From Fidelibacterota bacterium (GTDB lineage: Bacteria; Fidelibacterota; Marinisomatia; Marinisomatales; JABMOV01), in the NCBI GenBank assembly GCA_046861395.1, contig JBHHUC010000032.1, positions 1-22,942 of the forward strand: a stretch of 22,942 nucleotides of DNA. Reading direction: 5' to 3'. Each line of letters begins with the position of its first letter. Position 1 is the stretch's first letter. Of this stretch, positions 9,001-21,000 are shown one piece after another. Position numbers: made by a program.

Positions 9001-12000
9001 TCGGGATACAATTTGCGCCAAGTTGCCCAGGTGGTTTCCAGCAGTGGTTTTAATTCCAGGGTCCTGCCACGTTTCGTCCCGGCCGCCGAAGCCAGGAGTA
9101 ATTGGGGCCAATAGCTTTCAGTACCGCGATCATACATGATCAGGTTGCTGTTATACAACATTCCCGAAACACCGAATTCTCCTTCTGTAACGGCATGAAG
9201 GGCCGATCCGGTTAGGGGGCAGTAGGAAATCATGTAGCCGGACTCATTTACCACTTCATGCCAATCCAGGATCGGGTGGGGATAGGCCACATATTCACTG
9301 CCGTTATACATCCCCACCACCAGATCACTCTCCTGCAGATAGGTATGAGCGGGGTCCGTAGTGATAGCATAGTGGGGATTGTCGATACTGGGAATACAAT
9401 CACGGCCGGCGTAACATCCCTGTTGCACGAATTCTGTATCAATGTCCCATTGTTCCTGATTCAGATTTCCTCCCAGAATATTGTCCTCCTGACAGGATAT
9501 CAGGACCAGCAACAGAATCAAAACCGAACGCTGCATAGGCATCCTCTTTTTCTGAAGTTACATCGTTCTGACGCTATTCGGTGTCCAGCAGCTGACACTT
9601 CAGACAATCGTATTCATTTTGCTAACTATAATAATGTTATTGTTTTATTACTACATTATTCATCGTAGTTTTTCATGTTATTATCAGGAAGGAATTTGCT
9701 ACTTACTTCTCTCTTTTGAGTCGCTGTGTTCAACTCCTGTCTGATATTCTATCCAATTGATTTCAGGAGACACAATGAACATTCAAGACAATAGTGTAGT
9801 CACTATTCATTACACTCTGACCGATGACCAGGGGACACAACTCGATTCCTCTGAGAACCACGGCCCGCTGAATTATCTGCATGGCGCACACAACATTATC
9901 CCCGGGCTGGAAAACGCCCTGACCGGAAAAAAAGTTGGCGATTCCCTTGAGGTGGAAGTTTCACCGAAAGATGGTTATGGTCTGGTTGATCCGGCTAAGA
10001 TTCAGGATATTCCCTTATCCGCATTTGATGGCGTGGAAACAGTTAAGCCCGGGATGCAGTTCCAGGCCCAGGATTCCAGCGGAAATGTACAGAATATTAC
10101 CGTCAACGATGTGAAAGACGATATTGTTACCGTAGATGCCAACCATCCCCTGGCCGGTAAAGTACTACATTTTGCGGTCACCATCGAGAATATACGACAC
10201 GCCACACCGGAAGAAATCAGCCACGGACATATTCATTAAGGATTGAATATCCATTGTCGCTTGGCGGTGGCCTTGCTTATAATTCTTCCCGCAATCGTTT
10301 GCGTCGCCGGGAATCGATAGTATCCACGGCCCGTACGGCATATTCCTGGGCCGTATAAATTTGTTTCATCACCGGTTCCGTTCGGCGCTTGGTGGCATCG
10401 CCGACAACAAAAAAGCCCCTGACGGACGTTTCGCCCTTATGATCGATATAGATGTGGCGTTTTTCCACCGCTTCCTGTTCATCGGCCAGCTCGGTGCCAA
10501 CCTTGATCGCCAGATCATTATAGACCCGATACAGCCCCAGGGAAACCAAGGCAAACCTGACCATAACATCCTCATGCCGGTCAAAAGTAAATCCCCGGAG
10601 TTGTTTTACACCGTCACTGATGATATTGGTAATCTGATCCGGGACGATTTCAATTTCATAGGCCTGTAGGATGTGTCGGCGCTTCGATGAAATCCCAAGT
10701 GGCAACCCATTGCCCAGTATAACCACCCGGATACCATATCGTTCGTGCAGCATCATAGCTAGTTCGGCCGCCGTATTACTGTTTCCCAGCACGGCAACCG
10801 CATCCTGTTTTGTCAGATGTCCCTCACAGCGAATACAATAGAGTACCTGTTCCCGGTTGGCAAAAGGATATATCCATTTTTCACTGGCTAAGGGCGCACC
10901 AGTTCTGTCGGGTTTCAGAATAACTGGTTGTTCGTCCATCACGCCGGTACACAGAACCACTGATTCTGCTTTTTTTTCTGTGCCAACGGAAGAAAGAGTA
11001 AAAACGCCGTCCGATAAATTCAAGTCGGTGACCGATTCTGAAATAATGTCCACGGCGGGATAATCCGCCCGGATGCGGTCTATGGTATTCTGGATGATCA
11101 TGCGGTTATTGATATGAAAATGTTGTCCCGCCAGGGACTCTGCTGCTTCATGAAACTTGTTTTTCCGCAGTACGGCCAGGACCTGATTTTTTACAATATC
11201 ATCGTGGAGACCAATCATATTGTCAATATTGGCAACCCATTGGGAGCGACTCCGTTTCCGTGTTCGTTTATCACCCAGAAACCATACCGTATCCAGCCCG
11301 TTTTGTGCCGCCCGCAGGGCAGTGGCGGAACCGGCGATCCCTCCGCCAATAACAGCAACATGCTTCATATCAATTCCTTTCCATTGATAAATCGTTCTAT
11401 GGTTTCCAGTGGCAGATGATCCCCGATATGTCGGCCGTAATAGGCCACCGCGATAATCCCCTGCTCATCAATCAGGAAATCCGCCGGCACAATGGCAATA
11501 TCACCCTCCATTTTTCCCGGCAAAAATCCCTTTGCCATTCCCTGCAGAACGGGTATGGCCCCACGAATAAATTTCAACCAGGATGATTCAACACCGAATT
11601 GCCGGTACACGTCACGGCCGGGATCGGGAATCAGGGGAAAGGGGCGTTGTTCTCGTCCTACTCGTTTTTGAATACTCTCCCGGTCAGATTCGAATACTGC
11701 CAGGAGCCGAAAACCGGTCTCCTGCCAGCGGGGAGCCTGTTCACTGAGGGTATGAATCCGCAAGTTACATAGGGGACAACCGGCATAGCGGTAGAATGAT
11801 ATGAGCCAGCGTCTGCCGCGTAAATCACGGCTATCGATTTTTTCACCGCTAGTATCAGTCATGACAAATGTCGGGACCGGATCGCCCCGTCTTATTTTCA
11901 TTTCATCCTTCTTTCCGATCCCAGGAGAGTTTCGATCCAATCCGCCAGATGATGAGCCGAATCGGTGCGTAATTCCCTCAGTCCGTCTACTATCCCTCCT

Positions 12001-18000: not shown

Positions 18001-21000
18001 GTTGGGTAAGTGTGAATCGTACCCAGGATTTTATTGAGTCCAAGACCGTATTTCATCGCCAGTACATATTCGGCCATGATTTCTCCGGCATGGGGCCCCA
18101 CTATGGTAGTGCCCAAGATTTTATCTTTGTTGGGAACGGTCAGGACCTTTACAAATCCGCGGTTTTCACCGTCGGCAATGGCACGGTCCAGCCCGGCAAA
18201 ATCATATGTGGTCACTTCATAGGGAATATCTTCCCGTTGCGCATCTTTCTCATTCAATCCCACGCGAGCCACTTCCGGATCGGTAAAGGTGGTCCAGGGA
18301 ATGATGCGATAATCGGCTTTGAACTTTTTCAGGGGGCTGAACAGAGCGTTAATGCTCACATACCAGGCCTGATGGGAAGCAAAATGTGTGAACTGGTATG
18401 GTCCGGTAACATCACCGCAAGCATAGATATTGGGATAATTTGTACGCAGAAATGGATCCACATCGATGGTCCCGTTGGGTCGCAATTCTACTCCCAGTTC
18501 TTCCAGTCCGAATCCAGTCACATTGGCCCGGCGTCCCAATGCAAGCAGAATTTCATCACAGTGAATACGGATTTCCTTTCCTTCATGTTCGCATACGACG
18601 ATTTTTTCATCGCCGTCCCGTTCGAATCGTTTGACCATGTGTCCTGTTTTTACGGTGACACCTTCCTGTTCGAACGTTTCCCGGATGAATGCACTCACAT
18701 CGTCATCTTCCCGGTTCAGAATGCCGTCATAACCTTCCACCTGAGTCACGGCACTGCCGAAACGGGCGAAAGCCTGCGTCATTTCACTGCCGATAGGACC
18801 GCCCCCCACTACCACCAGCCGTTTGGGCAGGGTACGAATATCCCAGATGGTATCGCTGGTCAACGGACTGACTTCTTCCAAGCCAGGAATAGGTGGTGCC
18901 AACGGCCGGCTGCCGGTAGCAATCACGATGTTCCTGGTTGTCAATGTATTGCCGTTCACTTCTACCGTGAAAGGATCAATGATTCGGGCTTCCCCGATCA
19001 TGGCGTCCACTCCTAAACTTTGATAGCGTTCTACGGAATCATGAGGTTCAATGTATTTAATGACACTCTGCACCCGTTCCATGACATGGGCAAAGTCGAA
19101 ATCGACGGTCGTGGAACGAAATCCCCAATCGGTAGCCCGGTGGGCATGATGGAGCATCTTGGCGGAGCGCAGCAATGTTTTACTGGGAACACAACCCGTA
19201 TTTAGGCAGTCACCACCCATTTTCGTTTTTTCGATCACGGCAACCTTGGCTTTGAGAACAGCGGCAATATATGCGGCTACCAATCCACCGGATCCGGCCC
19301 CGATCACAATGATATTGTAATCAAAGTGTCGTGGTTTTTTCGTATTTTTATAGATTTTCCTGGCCCTTACAACTGCTACGATACTCTTTGCAATCCATGG
19401 GAATAGTCCCAACAGGGCAAAGGATAAGAGAACGTCCGGGGATATTATGCCGGAGGCCGATTCCAGTTGGGCCAGTTGTGTTCCCGCATTCACGTAAACG
19501 GCTGTTCCGGCCAGCATTCCCAATTGACTGACCCCGTAGAAGGTCCGTGCCGGTATGGGTGTAAGTCCGAATATCAGATTTATCATAAAGAAGGGGAAAA
19601 TGGGGATTAGACGCAATGTAAATAAATAGAAACCGCCATCCTTTTTAATCCCTTCATTAATGACCTGAAGTTTCTTACCGAAGCGGGACTGGACCGGTTC
19701 ACGAAACAGATACCGGGCGACCAGAAATGCCAGTGTTGCGCCAATGGAACTGGCAAAGGAAATCAGGATTACAGCTGGGAAAAAGCCGAAAATGGCGCCG
19801 CCGGCCAGAGTCAGAATGACGGCTCCGGGAAGGGAAATGGCTGTAGCAAAAACGTAAAGGGCAAAATACCCGGCCATCATGGTAAACTGATGCTCCTGGT
19901 AATAGGCCTGGATTTGTGTCTGTTGCCGTTTTAATTCGGTAAAATTTAAATACTGTCCAATATCAAAATATTGATATACAGCCACGGCACCAAAGAATAG
20001 GGCCATAAATGTTAACACTTTTTTTATGTTCATTATTTTATTCCTGTTATAAATCTACCGTGGCAAGACGGCGATGTAATCGATAAAAGCAATGGCGGAT
20101 TCGCCGGTATTATCCGAATCGGACATGATGGCCAGGCTGGCAGTGGCAGGCGGATCCTCGCCAAAAGCAGCCCGGTAATCCCGCAATATATCTACTTCCT
20201 CTTCCTGCCAAGTACCAACTGCTGCGGGACCTTCCCGGAGAACAATCATCTGAGCCTGGTTGGTATAGGCATTGGGAATGATCCCTTTTTCATGGGAACG
20301 ATTGGCCCAGATATAATTCAGGCTGGAATGGGGCGGGTATTCACCATAAACGAGGCGGGCCGCTTCATATTTGAGCGCCTGGGCCCAGCCGGCCTCGTCG
20401 GGGTCATACTGAAAAACAATATAGATCCGGACCGGGTAATCATCACCATCTTTGAAGCGGGCATCCCCTTTTGTAAAGACATTGCTGACCATCCAGCGCC
20501 ACCTGATGACCGGCATTTCATAGACATTGAAAGTTTCAGAAAAAATGACTCCGGATGCCGAAGCCCGTGCTTCAGCCTTCAGGACTGACACCGTATCTCT
20601 TTTTTCTATAGAATAGTAGGTATGGTTTTCAATATTCGGAAACGTCAACGGTTTCCAATGATCCAGCGACGAAAAATCTTCTACGATGGGTTCCGTCCCC
20701 CACAGGACAGAAAAAGCATAAACGAATAAAAATTGTTTCATAATACCTCAAAAGAGGGGAAACAGGATGTTTCCCCCCGCATTTACAGTGCTGATTATTC
20801 TTCACCATTTCCTTTGATGAAAAAGGTCAAACCGGTTAAGAGGATTAGCATTTGAAATTCCATACCACCCATGTTATTGGTTCCTTCGCCCCAACCGGCG
20901 GCAAAACTCCAGCCATTGGGCAGATGAACCATCATGATGGCACCCAGCATGACGACAGCCATGATACCACCGGCGACTCTGGTGGCCCAATCCGGTCCCG

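Follow-up and report, generated by a model that had tools for sequence, protein, structure and literature searches.

An arsenosugar-type operon that encloses an MTAP-family phosphorylase and a halogenase-like flavoenzyme in a Fidelibacterota bacterium

What do an MTAP-family nucleoside phosphorylase and a halogenase-type flavoenzyme do in an operon that places their genes between the gene for the arsenic methyltransferase ArsM and the genes of two transferase families? The window in which this arrangement occurs, 22,942 nt of DNA from a Fidelibacterota bacterium, is an entire contig. Between positions 10277 and 20741 lie ten minus-strand ORFs, separated by at most 21 nt or overlapping, which encode, in order, a DUF3047 protein, a fusion of a VTT domain with a pyridine-nucleotide-disulfide reductase, ArsS, ArsM, the halogenase-like protein, MTAP, the TIGR04283 and DUF2064/TIGR04282 proteins, a redoxin and a TrxR-like flavoprotein (Table 1). 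A ten-gene, one-strand operon had been proposed in the survey's finding, and it holds with family assignments derived anew; the profile scores for TIGR04167, TIGR01694, TIGR04283 and TIGR04282 were also re-obtained. These data support an ArsS/ArsM arsenosugar-type operon with both NCBIfam 'arsenosugar' transferase families, present as surveyed though both below their curated cut-offs. The earlier interpretation thus stands as to the operon type and the MTAP and halogenase within it; its description of the MTAP as a 'paralog' and of the TIGR04282 protein as a 'glycosyltransferase' does not.

Table 1. Coordinates and family evidence for the cluster and the two genes upstream of it.
Feature	Position	Strand	Evidence
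TrxR-like flavoprotein, CIRC motif	10277..11368	-	Pyr_redox_2, 61.4 bits
Thioredoxin-fold redoxin, CPLC motif	11365..12012	-	AhpC-TSA, 71.7 bits
DUF2064/TIGR04282 protein	11898..12632	-	TIGR04282, 128.5 bits (below cut-off 134)
GT2-like glycosyltransferase	12572..13258	-	TIGR04283, 154.5 bits (below cut-off 182)
MTAP-family nucleoside phosphorylase	13264..14112	-	TIGR01694, 286.7 bits (cut-off 274.85)
Flavin-dependent halogenase, CtcP/PltM type	14125..15807	-	PDB 7xgb CtcP, 372 bits; PltM, 323 bits
ArsM, As(III) SAM methyltransferase	15820..16872	-	PDB 5evj (arsenite methyltransferase), 345.5 bits
ArsS, radical SAM	16882..17898	-	TIGR04167, 448.9 bits (cut-off 300); Radical_SAM + DUF3641
DedA/VTT + class-I pyridine-nucleotide-disulfide oxidoreductase fusion	17895..20033	-	Pfam VTT_dom + Pyr_redox_2 + Pyr_redox_dim
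DUF3047 protein	20055..20741	-	PF11249, 247 bits
DoxX-family membrane protein	20795..21301	-	Pfam DoxX, 33.9 bits
Crp/Fnr-type regulator	21552..22232	-	Pfam cNMP_binding + HTH_Crp_2

The first two steps of the route we propose are published ones: ArsM would convert As(III) to dimethylarsenite, and ArsS would turn this into 5'-deoxy-5'-dimethylarsinoyl-adenosine (DDMAA), using the 5'-deoxyadenosyl group of SAM (PMC13598754). ArsS residues C33, C37 and C40 are invariant among five orthologs, and the ArsM cysteines align at four sites with those of 5evj, its score against NCBIfam PRK11873 being 202.1 bits, below the cut-off of 263. As in Synechocystis sp. PCC 6803, for which an ArsM/ArsS arsenosugar pathway is reported (Xue et al. 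2019; Cheng et al. 2021), both enzymes are present, adjoining and on one strand, with ArsS above its equivalog cut-off and the ArsM cysteines aligned. Here, however, the host is a non-cyanobacterial marine lineage, and the operon adds candidate enzymes for later steps, order-specific thiol-redox genes and a halogenase. All three families that NCBIfam names for 'arsenosugar biosynthesis' (TIGR04167, TIGR04283, TIGR04282) occur in the expected neighbourhood, but both transferases score slightly low for that cassette and the modelled fold of the TIGR04282 member is at odds with its product name. ArsS itself is rare, as had been noted, with revised figures: matches above the cut-off come from 5 of the order's 233 genomes and from 9 of the 401 phylum genomes sampled (previously 3/232 and 7/424).

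For what follows ArsS, we favour, at a probability of about 0.6, a complete and horizontally mobile arsenosugar-type operon whose route runs through ArsM, ArsS, MTAP, DUF2064 and GT2. MTAP would phosphorolyse DDMAA, releasing adenine and leaving 5-deoxy-5-dimethylarsinoyl-alpha-ribose-1-phosphate; as a CofC/FbiD-like nucleotidyltransferase, the DUF2064 protein would activate this sugar-1-phosphate to an NDP-sugar, and the inverting TIGR04283 GT2 would pass it to an acceptor to form the beta-riboside that defines arsenosugars. The known stereochemistry fits this route: the 1-phosphate made by MTAP has the alpha configuration, GT2 enzymes act with inversion, and the ribosides known as arsenosugars are of the beta form.

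The main alternative, which we consider rather unlikely, is that MTAP is an ordinary MTA/5'-deoxyadenosine phosphorylase for which DDMAA is no substrate, placed here by history or clearing 5'-deoxyadenosine, an inhibitor that would stem from uncoupled ArsS turnover. Consistent with this, it is the sole MTAP of the genome, as the survey had already reported; the genome's one further member of the family is a common PNP, which is why 'paralog' does not apply. Like the MTAP/MtnP of methionine and 5'-deoxyadenosine salvage, it exceeds the MTAP equivalog cut-off and keeps, in the alignment, all the canonical phosphate-, ribose- and adenine-binding positions as well as the catalytic ones; its solved-structure matches are 1v4n (244 bits) and human 1cb0 (193 bits). 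The gene is, however, embedded between arsM and the transferases. Against a salvage enzyme, the genome (G000) gave no match to MtnN and no MtnA above cut-off (an MtnA-like match reaches 63 bits, the cut-off being 279). In addition, neither enzyme's reaction in its current description (PMC13598754 for ArsS, general knowledge for ArsM) releases MTA, whether ArsS or ArsM is considered. The window clade also differs from salvage enzymes in having L-G in all 13 of its MTAPs, compared to F-S in 16 of 18 others, at the site equivalent to F177-S178 of human MTAP; as a sign of an altered role, this substitution is only suggestive.

The genomic linkage of MTAP to ArsS bears on the same choice. Among 80 ArsS loci from other phyla (tblastn, E<=1e-8, with 50% or more of the query aligned), the neighbours include TIGR04283 at 31 loci, the VTT-reductase at 26, ArsM at 20, DUF2064 at 14, and MTAP and DUF3047 at 9 each. 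The values for MTAP and ArsM equal those of the survey; the other families recur as it stated, at somewhat lower figures. The absence of a nearby MTAP from 71 of the 80 loci counts against the proposed route and favours the ordinary-phosphorylase alternative, and the presence of ArsM near ArsS in only 20 also counts against the route. The nine linked MTAP genes all lie on the ArsS strand, four of them directly downstream of ArsS (L019, L033, L039, L043), and in five of the nine, as in the window, where the TIGR04283 gene begins 5 nt past MTAP, it is the GT2 gene rather than ArsS that MTAP abuts (gap of at most 4 nt, or overlap, in the five). The compact L043 operon consists of ArsS, MTAP and then a fused GT2/DUF2064. 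These arrangements count against simple salvage, as does a distant second MTAP-family copy, its two adenine-binding Asp positions being N and A, which accompanies the clustered one in the genomes of only two of the nine loci (L035, L038).

Within the phylum sample, five of the nine ArsS genomes carry a window-like MTAP, and in all five it lies inside the cluster: about 1.2 kb or less from ArsS in G020, G386 and G395, 2.8 kb away in the window genome, with the halogenase between, and on the contig that continues the ArsS cluster in G119. The linkage between MTAP and ArsS recurs far beyond chance. In the MTAP tree, seven foreign ArsS-linked MTAPs and the window-like MTAPs of the order form one group of moderate support (92/75), apart from a group (100/100) of the order's 13 other MTAPs, which are 35-38% identical and have no ars neighbours. 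The window-like MTAP is absent from the other four ArsS genomes of the phylum (G115, G130, G364, G376), with just other PNP-family genes found in G115 and G130, which also counts against the route. In its favour, five genomes were hand-picked from about ten loci where ArsS, GT2 and DUF2064 occur without MTAP in the cluster, and every one of them has an MTAP-family match elsewhere (271-288 bits, four above 274.85) but neither MtnN nor MtnK. We rejected the idea that the window-like subfamily is exclusive to ArsS clusters: 22 of its 27 carriers in the phylum sample lack ArsS, including 19 of the 26 genomes of family f24, plus G168. MTAP of the window type can therefore have a general role, in keeping with the ordinary-phosphorylase alternative, as is its setting in G018 and G019, beside only DoxX and a flavoprotein (TetR-DoxX-CMD-MTAP-flavoprotein) and likewise without ArsS.

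The step assigned to DUF2064 depends on what kind of transferase this protein is. Its structure model (pLDDT 91.7) is closest to 3cgx (50.8 bits by sequence), followed by CofC, FbiD and 3-phosphoglycerate guanylyltransferase. Among folds of characterised proteins, guanylyl- and cytidylyltransferases stand nearest, and no glycosyltransferase ranks above 36th. The modelled fold is thus of the CofC/FbiD nucleotidyltransferase type and not that of a glycosyltransferase, contrary to the earlier label. It resembles CofC/FbiD (2-phospho-L-lactate or PEP guanylyltransferase) with TM-scores of 0.61-0.65 (query-normalised) or 0.70-0.76 (target-normalised) and a weak TIGR03552 match (23.7 bits), but identity is only 10-20% and there is no F420 context. 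The protein's true start may lie further in, since residues 1-23 fall outside the family match. CofC and FbiD activate phospho-lactate or PEP. A quite improbable alternative builds on this: no ribose-1-phosphate would be involved, DUF2064 would activate another phosphorylated acceptor, GT2 would use a common NDP-sugar and arsenic would be attached otherwise. The nearest characterised folds do act on phospho-acids rather than sugar-1-phosphates, DUF2064 was not found at 17 of the 31 GT2-bearing ArsS loci under the tblastn thresholds given above, and L143 pairs a TIGR04283 GT with a different radical SAM enzyme. On the other hand, sugar-phosphate nucleotidyltransferases of the GlmU, IspD and KdsB types also match the fold, the order MTAP-GT2-DUF2064 recurs among ArsS loci, and in L043 the GT2/DUF2064 fusion directly follows MTAP.

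The remaining genes of the favoured route would have supporting roles. For the redoxin and the TrxR-like flavoprotein, this is probably to hold the arsenical itself, or thiols such as the cysteines of ArsM, in the reduced state. The former (likely start M38) scores 69.6 bits against a SelL-related family (cut-off 120) and occurs in all four other ArsS clusters of the order; the latter scores 59.8 bits against TRX_reduct (cut-off 343) and is syntenic in L015, L016, L017 and L208. Both are missing from all 80 foreign ArsS loci by tblastn, as are the two genes upstream of the cluster: the Crp/Fnr-type regulator, syntenic in G020 and G119 (position kept in L017, L018), and DoxX, an order-specific accessory gene syntenic in L017, L018, L209 and L211. 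The membrane-anchored VTT-disulfide reductase, with a CLNTGC redox disulfide but no C-terminal Cys pair, and the DUF3047 protein could perhaps serve a lipid-linked step; the latter has an N-terminus that is hydrophobic by eye and a beta jelly-roll model (pLDDT 85.5) with merely generic fold matches (TM ~0.5). Elsewhere in the window, positions 4396-5001 encode a T9SS sorting domain; such a domain fits the FCB group, which includes SAR406 in current classification.

The halogenase would be an addition in the window lineage. Its closest solved relatives are CtcP (tetracycline 7-halogenase) and PltM (PrnC had been named earlier), halogenases of free aromatic substrates with which it shares flavin and halogenase motifs (GxGxxG, the conserved Lys K86, and WxWxIP as WLWVIP), conserved at 90% or more across 65 clade members. 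In contrast to theirs, its setting is an organoarsenical operon without polyketide or pyrrole genes, and elsewhere members of the clade usually lie next to genes for a CDP-alcohol phosphatidyltransferase and for a disulfide reductase; the window holds no small flavin reductase gene. Relatives do occur in Cyanobacteria, Chloroflexota and Deinococcota, as surveyed, and the best non-self identity is 57%. We give about even odds that the gene is a horizontally acquired passenger between arsM and MTAP, acting on an unrelated small molecule. The otherwise colinear sister cluster in G020 lacks it, the window copy stands alone on a long branch of the tree, and it was found in one of 401 sampled phylum genomes, the window's own (a rarity already noted), and, under the same tblastn thresholds, at none of the 80 ArsS loci from other phyla. 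Its relatives lie mostly in other contexts, with the CDP-alcohol phosphatidyltransferase as neighbour at 28 of 80 loci. Yet the gene sits tightly in the operon, its GTG start 12 nt past the ArsM stop and a gap of 12 nt on the other side too, and its codon use is host-typical. One unrelated metagenome lineage (L147, L164, L166, L169, 83-85% mutually identical; 4 of 80 halogenase-relative loci) also has a family member in its ArsS cluster, with ArsS-PHO4 on one side and the VTT-reductase on the other. Of 80 family members, 18 have a disulfide-reductase gene nearby, and the one in L143 adjoins the TIGR04283 GT (234.7 bits) and DUF547.

In the literature consulted, loss of adenine by a nucleosidase-type step is a proposal (PMC10456119). 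Globally, our data make the MTAP of this operon a likely candidate enzyme for a later step of arsenosugar synthesis.

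The window comprises the complete contig of 22,942 bases, and ten minus-strand ORFs between 10277 and 20741 follow one another at spacings of at most 21 nt or overlap. This bears out the survey's finding of ten packed genes on one strand, whose family assignments we were able to reproduce (see table). A DoxX gene and a gene for a Crp-type regulator lie immediately upstream on the same strand. The operon call is based on spacing and synteny, as consensus scans of 9500-22942 gave no excess over shuffled sequence for either promoters (23 vs. 19.9 +/- 4.7) or terminators (21 vs. 14.8 +/- 3.7). 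We conclude that the cluster is a real arsenosugar-type operon and that it carries a lineage-specific halogenase.

Features of the window and of the comparison loci (L numbers), with the ten operon genes numbered in order of transcription
Position	Strand	Feature	Evidence or remark
10277-20741	-	Ten-gene operon	
	-	1, DUF3047	Pfam/NCBIfam profile scans
	-	2, DedA/VTT domain fused to pyridine-nucleotide-disulfide reductase (VTT-reductase)	
	-	3, ArsS	TIGR04167, 448.9 bits, cut-off 300 (whole-protein score)
	-	4, ArsM	
14125-15807	-	5, halogenase-like flavoprotein, 560 aa	
13264-14112	-	6, MTAP	TIGR01694, 286.7 bits, cut-off 274.85
	-	7, TIGR04283 GT2	154.5 bits, cut-off 182
	-	8, DUF2064/TIGR04282 protein	TIGR04282, 128.5 bits, cut-off 134
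	-	9, redoxin	
	-	10, TrxR-like flavoprotein	
4396-5001	+	AhpC/TSA redoxin	C-terminal Por_Secre_tail (type IX secretion sorting) domain
5045-5854	-	269-aa ORF	No Pfam match
7597-8511	-	304-aa ORF	No Pfam or NCBIfam match; 4-nt overlap with DUF3179 gene
L038:3523-4365		Fatty-acid-hydroxylase-family protein	ArsS neighbour not in window; also in four other loci
L080:10980-13339		Recurrent ArsS neighbour not in window	Relatives in other loci
L015:11043-17034 (G130)		Block inserted between VTT-reductase and ArsS	Family f12
L018:7542-12137 (G119)		Block inserted between VTT-reductase and ArsS	Family f12
L043:11807-13216		GT2 and DUF2064 as a single 469-aa protein	Both NCBIfam domains confirmed
L041:11971-13410		479-aa ORF, GT2/DUF2064 parts in reverse order	tblastn positions only
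L143:3508-8837		TIGR04283 GT and DUF547 beside a 462-aa non-ArsS radical SAM protein	GT 234.7 bits, over cut-off; best radical SAM matches TrsS (103 bits) and tetraether lipid synthase Tes (79 bits); genes divergent from halogenase relative
L209:1-3944 (G018)		TetR-DoxX-CMD(AhpD-like)-MTAP-TrxR-like flavoprotein	Genome without ArsS
L211:1-3678 (G019)		TetR-DoxX-CMD(AhpD-like)-MTAP-TrxR-like flavoprotein	Genome without ArsS

ArsM aligns with a solved arsenite methyltransferase (PDB 5evj, 345.5 bits), cysteines being matched at four sites that we take to be the catalytic four; it scores under the NCBIfam ArsM cut-offs (202.1 vs. 263 for PRK11873 and 109.2 vs. 400 for AsSugarArsM, NF038099). ArsS passes the curated equivalog cut-off of its family, its radical SAM CX3CX2C motif (C33, C37 and C40) is unchanged in five orthologs, as are other cysteines, and its Cys-rich C-terminal DUF3641 domain is recognized by Pfam (186.6 bits). 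From its sequence, the enzyme is predicted to adenosylate dimethylarsenite, giving 5'-deoxy-5'-dimethylarsinoyl-adenosine (DDMAA), the ArsS product and activity described for the Synechocystis enzyme in PMC13598754.

ArsS scores over the cut-off in five of 233 genomes of the order and in nine of 401 sampled from the phylum. G020, which belongs to the same family as the window's genome (G000), matches the window gene for gene between Crp and the flavoprotein, MTAP included, except that it has no halogenase. Two others (G115 and G130) have the order VTT-reductase ... ArsS-ArsM-GT2-DUF2064-redoxin-(...)-flavoprotein, without MTAP, and in G119 one contig stops just past ArsS and a second opens with MTAP-GT2-DUF2064-redoxin ... 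flavoprotein. From at least 600 ArsS stretches of other phyla we compared the best 80 (ArsS 51-65% identical), counting neighbours by tblastn (E<=1e-8, at least 50% query coverage) in loci many of which end at contig edges. TIGR04283 was present in 31 of these foreign loci, the VTT-reductase in 26, ArsM in 20, DUF2064 in 14, and DUF3047 and MTAP in nine each; the redoxin, TrxR-like flavoprotein, DoxX, Crp and halogenase were each found in none of the 80. By these counts the core consists of ArsS with the GT2, DUF2064, VTT-reductase and DUF3047, and some loci have ArsM and MTAP in addition. Four genes are order-specific (redoxin, flavoprotein, DoxX and Crp), and the halogenase is particular to G000.

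Some recurrent neighbours of ArsS have no counterpart in the window. Fatty-acid-hydroxylase-family proteins and PHO4 phosphate transporters each occur in five of the 80 loci, DUF547 in three, and two Pfam-less families in eight and six, respectively. The block inserted in family f12 encodes a PD-(D/E)XK protein, a 546-aa TPP enzyme, an aldehyde dehydrogenase and a TauE-type exporter, together with a Glu_synthase-like protein in G130, and its predicted products look like C2/C3-sulfonate metabolism. Some arsenosugars bear a sulfonate aglycone, and we wondered whether the block is related to it.

The MTAP passes the cut-off of its family and, in an alignment with 1cb0, keeps the positions to which we assign the binding of phosphate, ribose and adenine (Asp-x-Asp). 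It had been described as a paralog, which is the wrong word: G000 has a single MTAP, the sole further family member being an ordinary purine-nucleoside phosphorylase. A methionine-salvage setting for this enzyme (MtnA and later enzymes) was not found in G000 (94% complete), where MtnN has no match and the best match to MtnA reaches 63.1 bits vs. a cut-off of 279.

The link between MTAP and ArsS is real. All nine of the ArsS-linked MTAPs in the best 80 foreign loci lie on the ArsS strand, directly after ArsS in L019, L033, L039 and L043 and before it in L068 and L085, and the MTAP gene adjoins the GT2 gene (gap of at most 4 nt or overlap) in five of the nine. L043 holds a compact unit of ArsS, MTAP and a fused GT2/DUF2064 gene, flanked by genes on the opposite strand. 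Within the phylum sample, five of the nine ArsS genomes have an MTAP of the window's subfamily, and it is a cluster member in all five. In a tree of 31 sequences, the MTAPs of the window, G020, G119, G018, G019 and G168 group with seven foreign ArsS-linked copies (support 92/75). The remaining 13 MTAPs of the order, which are 35-38% identical and have no ars genes beside them, fall into a group of their own (100/100), and second copies from the L035 and L038 genomes are yet more distant. The linked group has L-G at human positions 177-178 in 13 of 13 members vs. F-S in 16 of 18 others, a substitution that is suggestive only. An apparent 610-aa ArsS-MTAP fusion in L019 proved to be an open frame overlapping ArsS in a different frame.

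Several observations, however, count against a dedicated role for MTAP. The window-like subfamily occurs without ArsS in G018, G019, G168 and, within family f24, in 19 of the 26 genomes, which rules out a clade exclusive to ArsS clusters; 71 of the 80 foreign ArsS loci have no MTAP nearby, and four ArsS genomes of the phylum have no window-like copy. Separately, we hand-picked five genomes with ArsS, GT2 and DUF2064 and without a clustered MTAP. All five have an unclustered MTAP-family gene (271-288 bits, four of five over the cut-off), and MtnN or MtnK was found in none of them. The TetR-DoxX-CMD-MTAP-flavoprotein unit of G018 and G019 represents either a leftover of the cluster or its ancestral scaffold.

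The TRANSFERASES, namely the DUF2064/TIGR04282 protein and the TIGR04283 GT2, both score below their curated NCBIfam cut-offs. The GT2 has the neighbourhood of its family, being adjacent to the TIGR04282 gene in the ArsS operon of the window; members of its family occur in 31 of the best 80 foreign ArsS loci, and relatives in L164 (274.7 bits) and L143 pass the cut-off; a search of solved structures gave no sequence match. The arrangement in L143 shows that the TIGR04283 GT family is not bound solely to ArsS. The DUF2064 protein passes the Pfam cut-off (73.6 vs. 25.8) and matches a solved member of this family, 3cgx, in sequence. Its model (pLDDT 91.7) is nearest in fold to 3cgx, followed by CofC (2i5e), FbiD (6bwg) and 7p97, a 3-phosphoglycerate guanylyltransferase; IspD, GlmU and KdsB come further down, and the first glycosyltransferase ranks 36th. 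This ranking points to a nucleotidyltransferase, and the protein is best read as a putative enzyme of this type with a CofC/MobA-like fold.

We propose a Leloir-type route in which MTAP would give an alpha-ribose-1-phosphate derivative, the DUF2064 protein would convert this into an NDP-sugar, and the inverting GT2 would form the beta-riboside. Arsenosugars are beta-ribosides, and the passage from MTAP through an NDP-sugar to an inverting GT2 fits this stereochemistry. As the missing late steps, MTAP, DUF2064 and GT2 have good comparative support, short of proof. In the freely accessible literature searched, the assigned enzymes of arsenosugar synthesis cover the ArsM and ArsS steps only; no assignment was found there for the steps after ArsS, and adenine removal and formation of the riboside bond appear only as proposals. 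One of these proposals, made in PMC10456119 for an arsenolipid of algae, is a step by an 'adenosyl nucleosidase'. No related work on arsM/arsS in ocean metagenomes was found in the literature searched.

Among solved structures, the halogenase is most closely related to CtcP (372 bits), followed by PltM (323 bits). Its motifs GSGIAG (GxGxxG), K86 and WLWVIP (WxWxIP) align to CtcP and are at least 90% conserved among 65 clade members; we take these motifs, with the lysine as the catalytic one, to be marks of a halogenase. The best non-self relative among some 5.8 billion clusters is 57% identical, and at least 2,034 proteins among 8,000 candidates scored are related at E<=1e-50. Within the phylum sample the gene is confined to G000, the two other matches being flavoproteins of 28-29% identity. 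No sign of recent foreign origin was seen in its composition (GC 0.486; codon-use distance 0.099 vs. a genome median of 0.090, over 560 codons), its codon usage being typical for the host genome, and no repeats were seen at its two 12-nt junctions. No dedicated small flavin reductase was found for it, the only flavin reductase candidates in the operon being the two disulfide-reductase-type flavoproteins.

We surveyed 80 metagenome loci (L099-L178) with halogenase relatives of 45-54% identity. Four of them (L147, L164, L166 and L169) sit in ArsS clusters, in the order ArsM-ArsS-PHO4-(methyltransferase)-halogenase-VTT-reductase-DUF547 or DUF3047-GT2-DUF2064. These four halogenases form one lineage, being 83-85% identical to each other, and in the tree they are nested well away from the long branch of the window's copy, making two independent recruitments into ArsS clusters. 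A further family member, in L143, lies beside DUF547, a TIGR04283 GT and a different radical SAM enzyme. The genes most often found next to members of the clade encode a CDP-alcohol phosphatidyltransferase (in 28 of the 80 loci), disulfide reductases (in 18-22), an SDR, and proteins resembling YdjM and AhpC; these neighbours hint at membrane lipid chemistry. The phosphatidyltransferase, of about 206 aa, lies directly downstream and is weakly like inositol-phosphate-type synthases, AhpC-TSA_2 proteins are part of the conserved neighbourhood, and in L155 and L163 a reductase gene comes after a split VTT gene. We found no description of this neighbourhood, nor, in the literature searched, any work joining the halogenase with the CDP-alcohol phosphatidyltransferase.

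To our knowledge, although no search aimed at it was made, no halogenase is known to act in arsenic metabolism. We consider it rather unlikely that the window's enzyme is a true organoarsenical tailoring enzyme, halogenating a pathway intermediate or the aglycone and working with the membrane-anchored VTT-disulfide reductase. Were this the case, the product of this lineage would be a halogenated, perhaps lipid-bound, arsenical. The halogenase family has entered ArsS or TIGR04283 clusters on two or more independent occasions, in the window, in the L164 lineage and, next to a TIGR04283 GT, in L143.

The cysteine motif is CPLC in the redoxin and CIRC in the TrxR-like protein, and it is plausible that a thiol relay would serve ArsM or hold the arsenical trivalent. 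The VTT-reductase contains the CLNTGC disulfide; a C-terminal pair of cysteines, as in MerA, was not seen in its sequence. The DUF3047 model is a beta jelly-roll with generic matches only (ciliary CFAP20-like chains, CBMs and lectins, TM about 0.5), so that no function follows from the fold. Outside the operon, the AhpC/TSA redoxin with the Por_Secre_tail domain would be a thiol peroxidase-like protein that is secreted or displayed on the surface, an unusual type; this domain is presumably in keeping with an FCB-group organism.

For the late steps, the operon and its relatives name three candidates: a phosphorylase of the MTAP type, a nucleotidyltransferase resembling CofC, and a GT2. Their order is stereochemically coherent and open to testing with purified proteins. 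The halogenase is the odd element of the operon. The data also place a complete predicted pathway in a non-photosynthetic marine lineage, which bears on the origin of arsenosugars in dark-ocean food webs.
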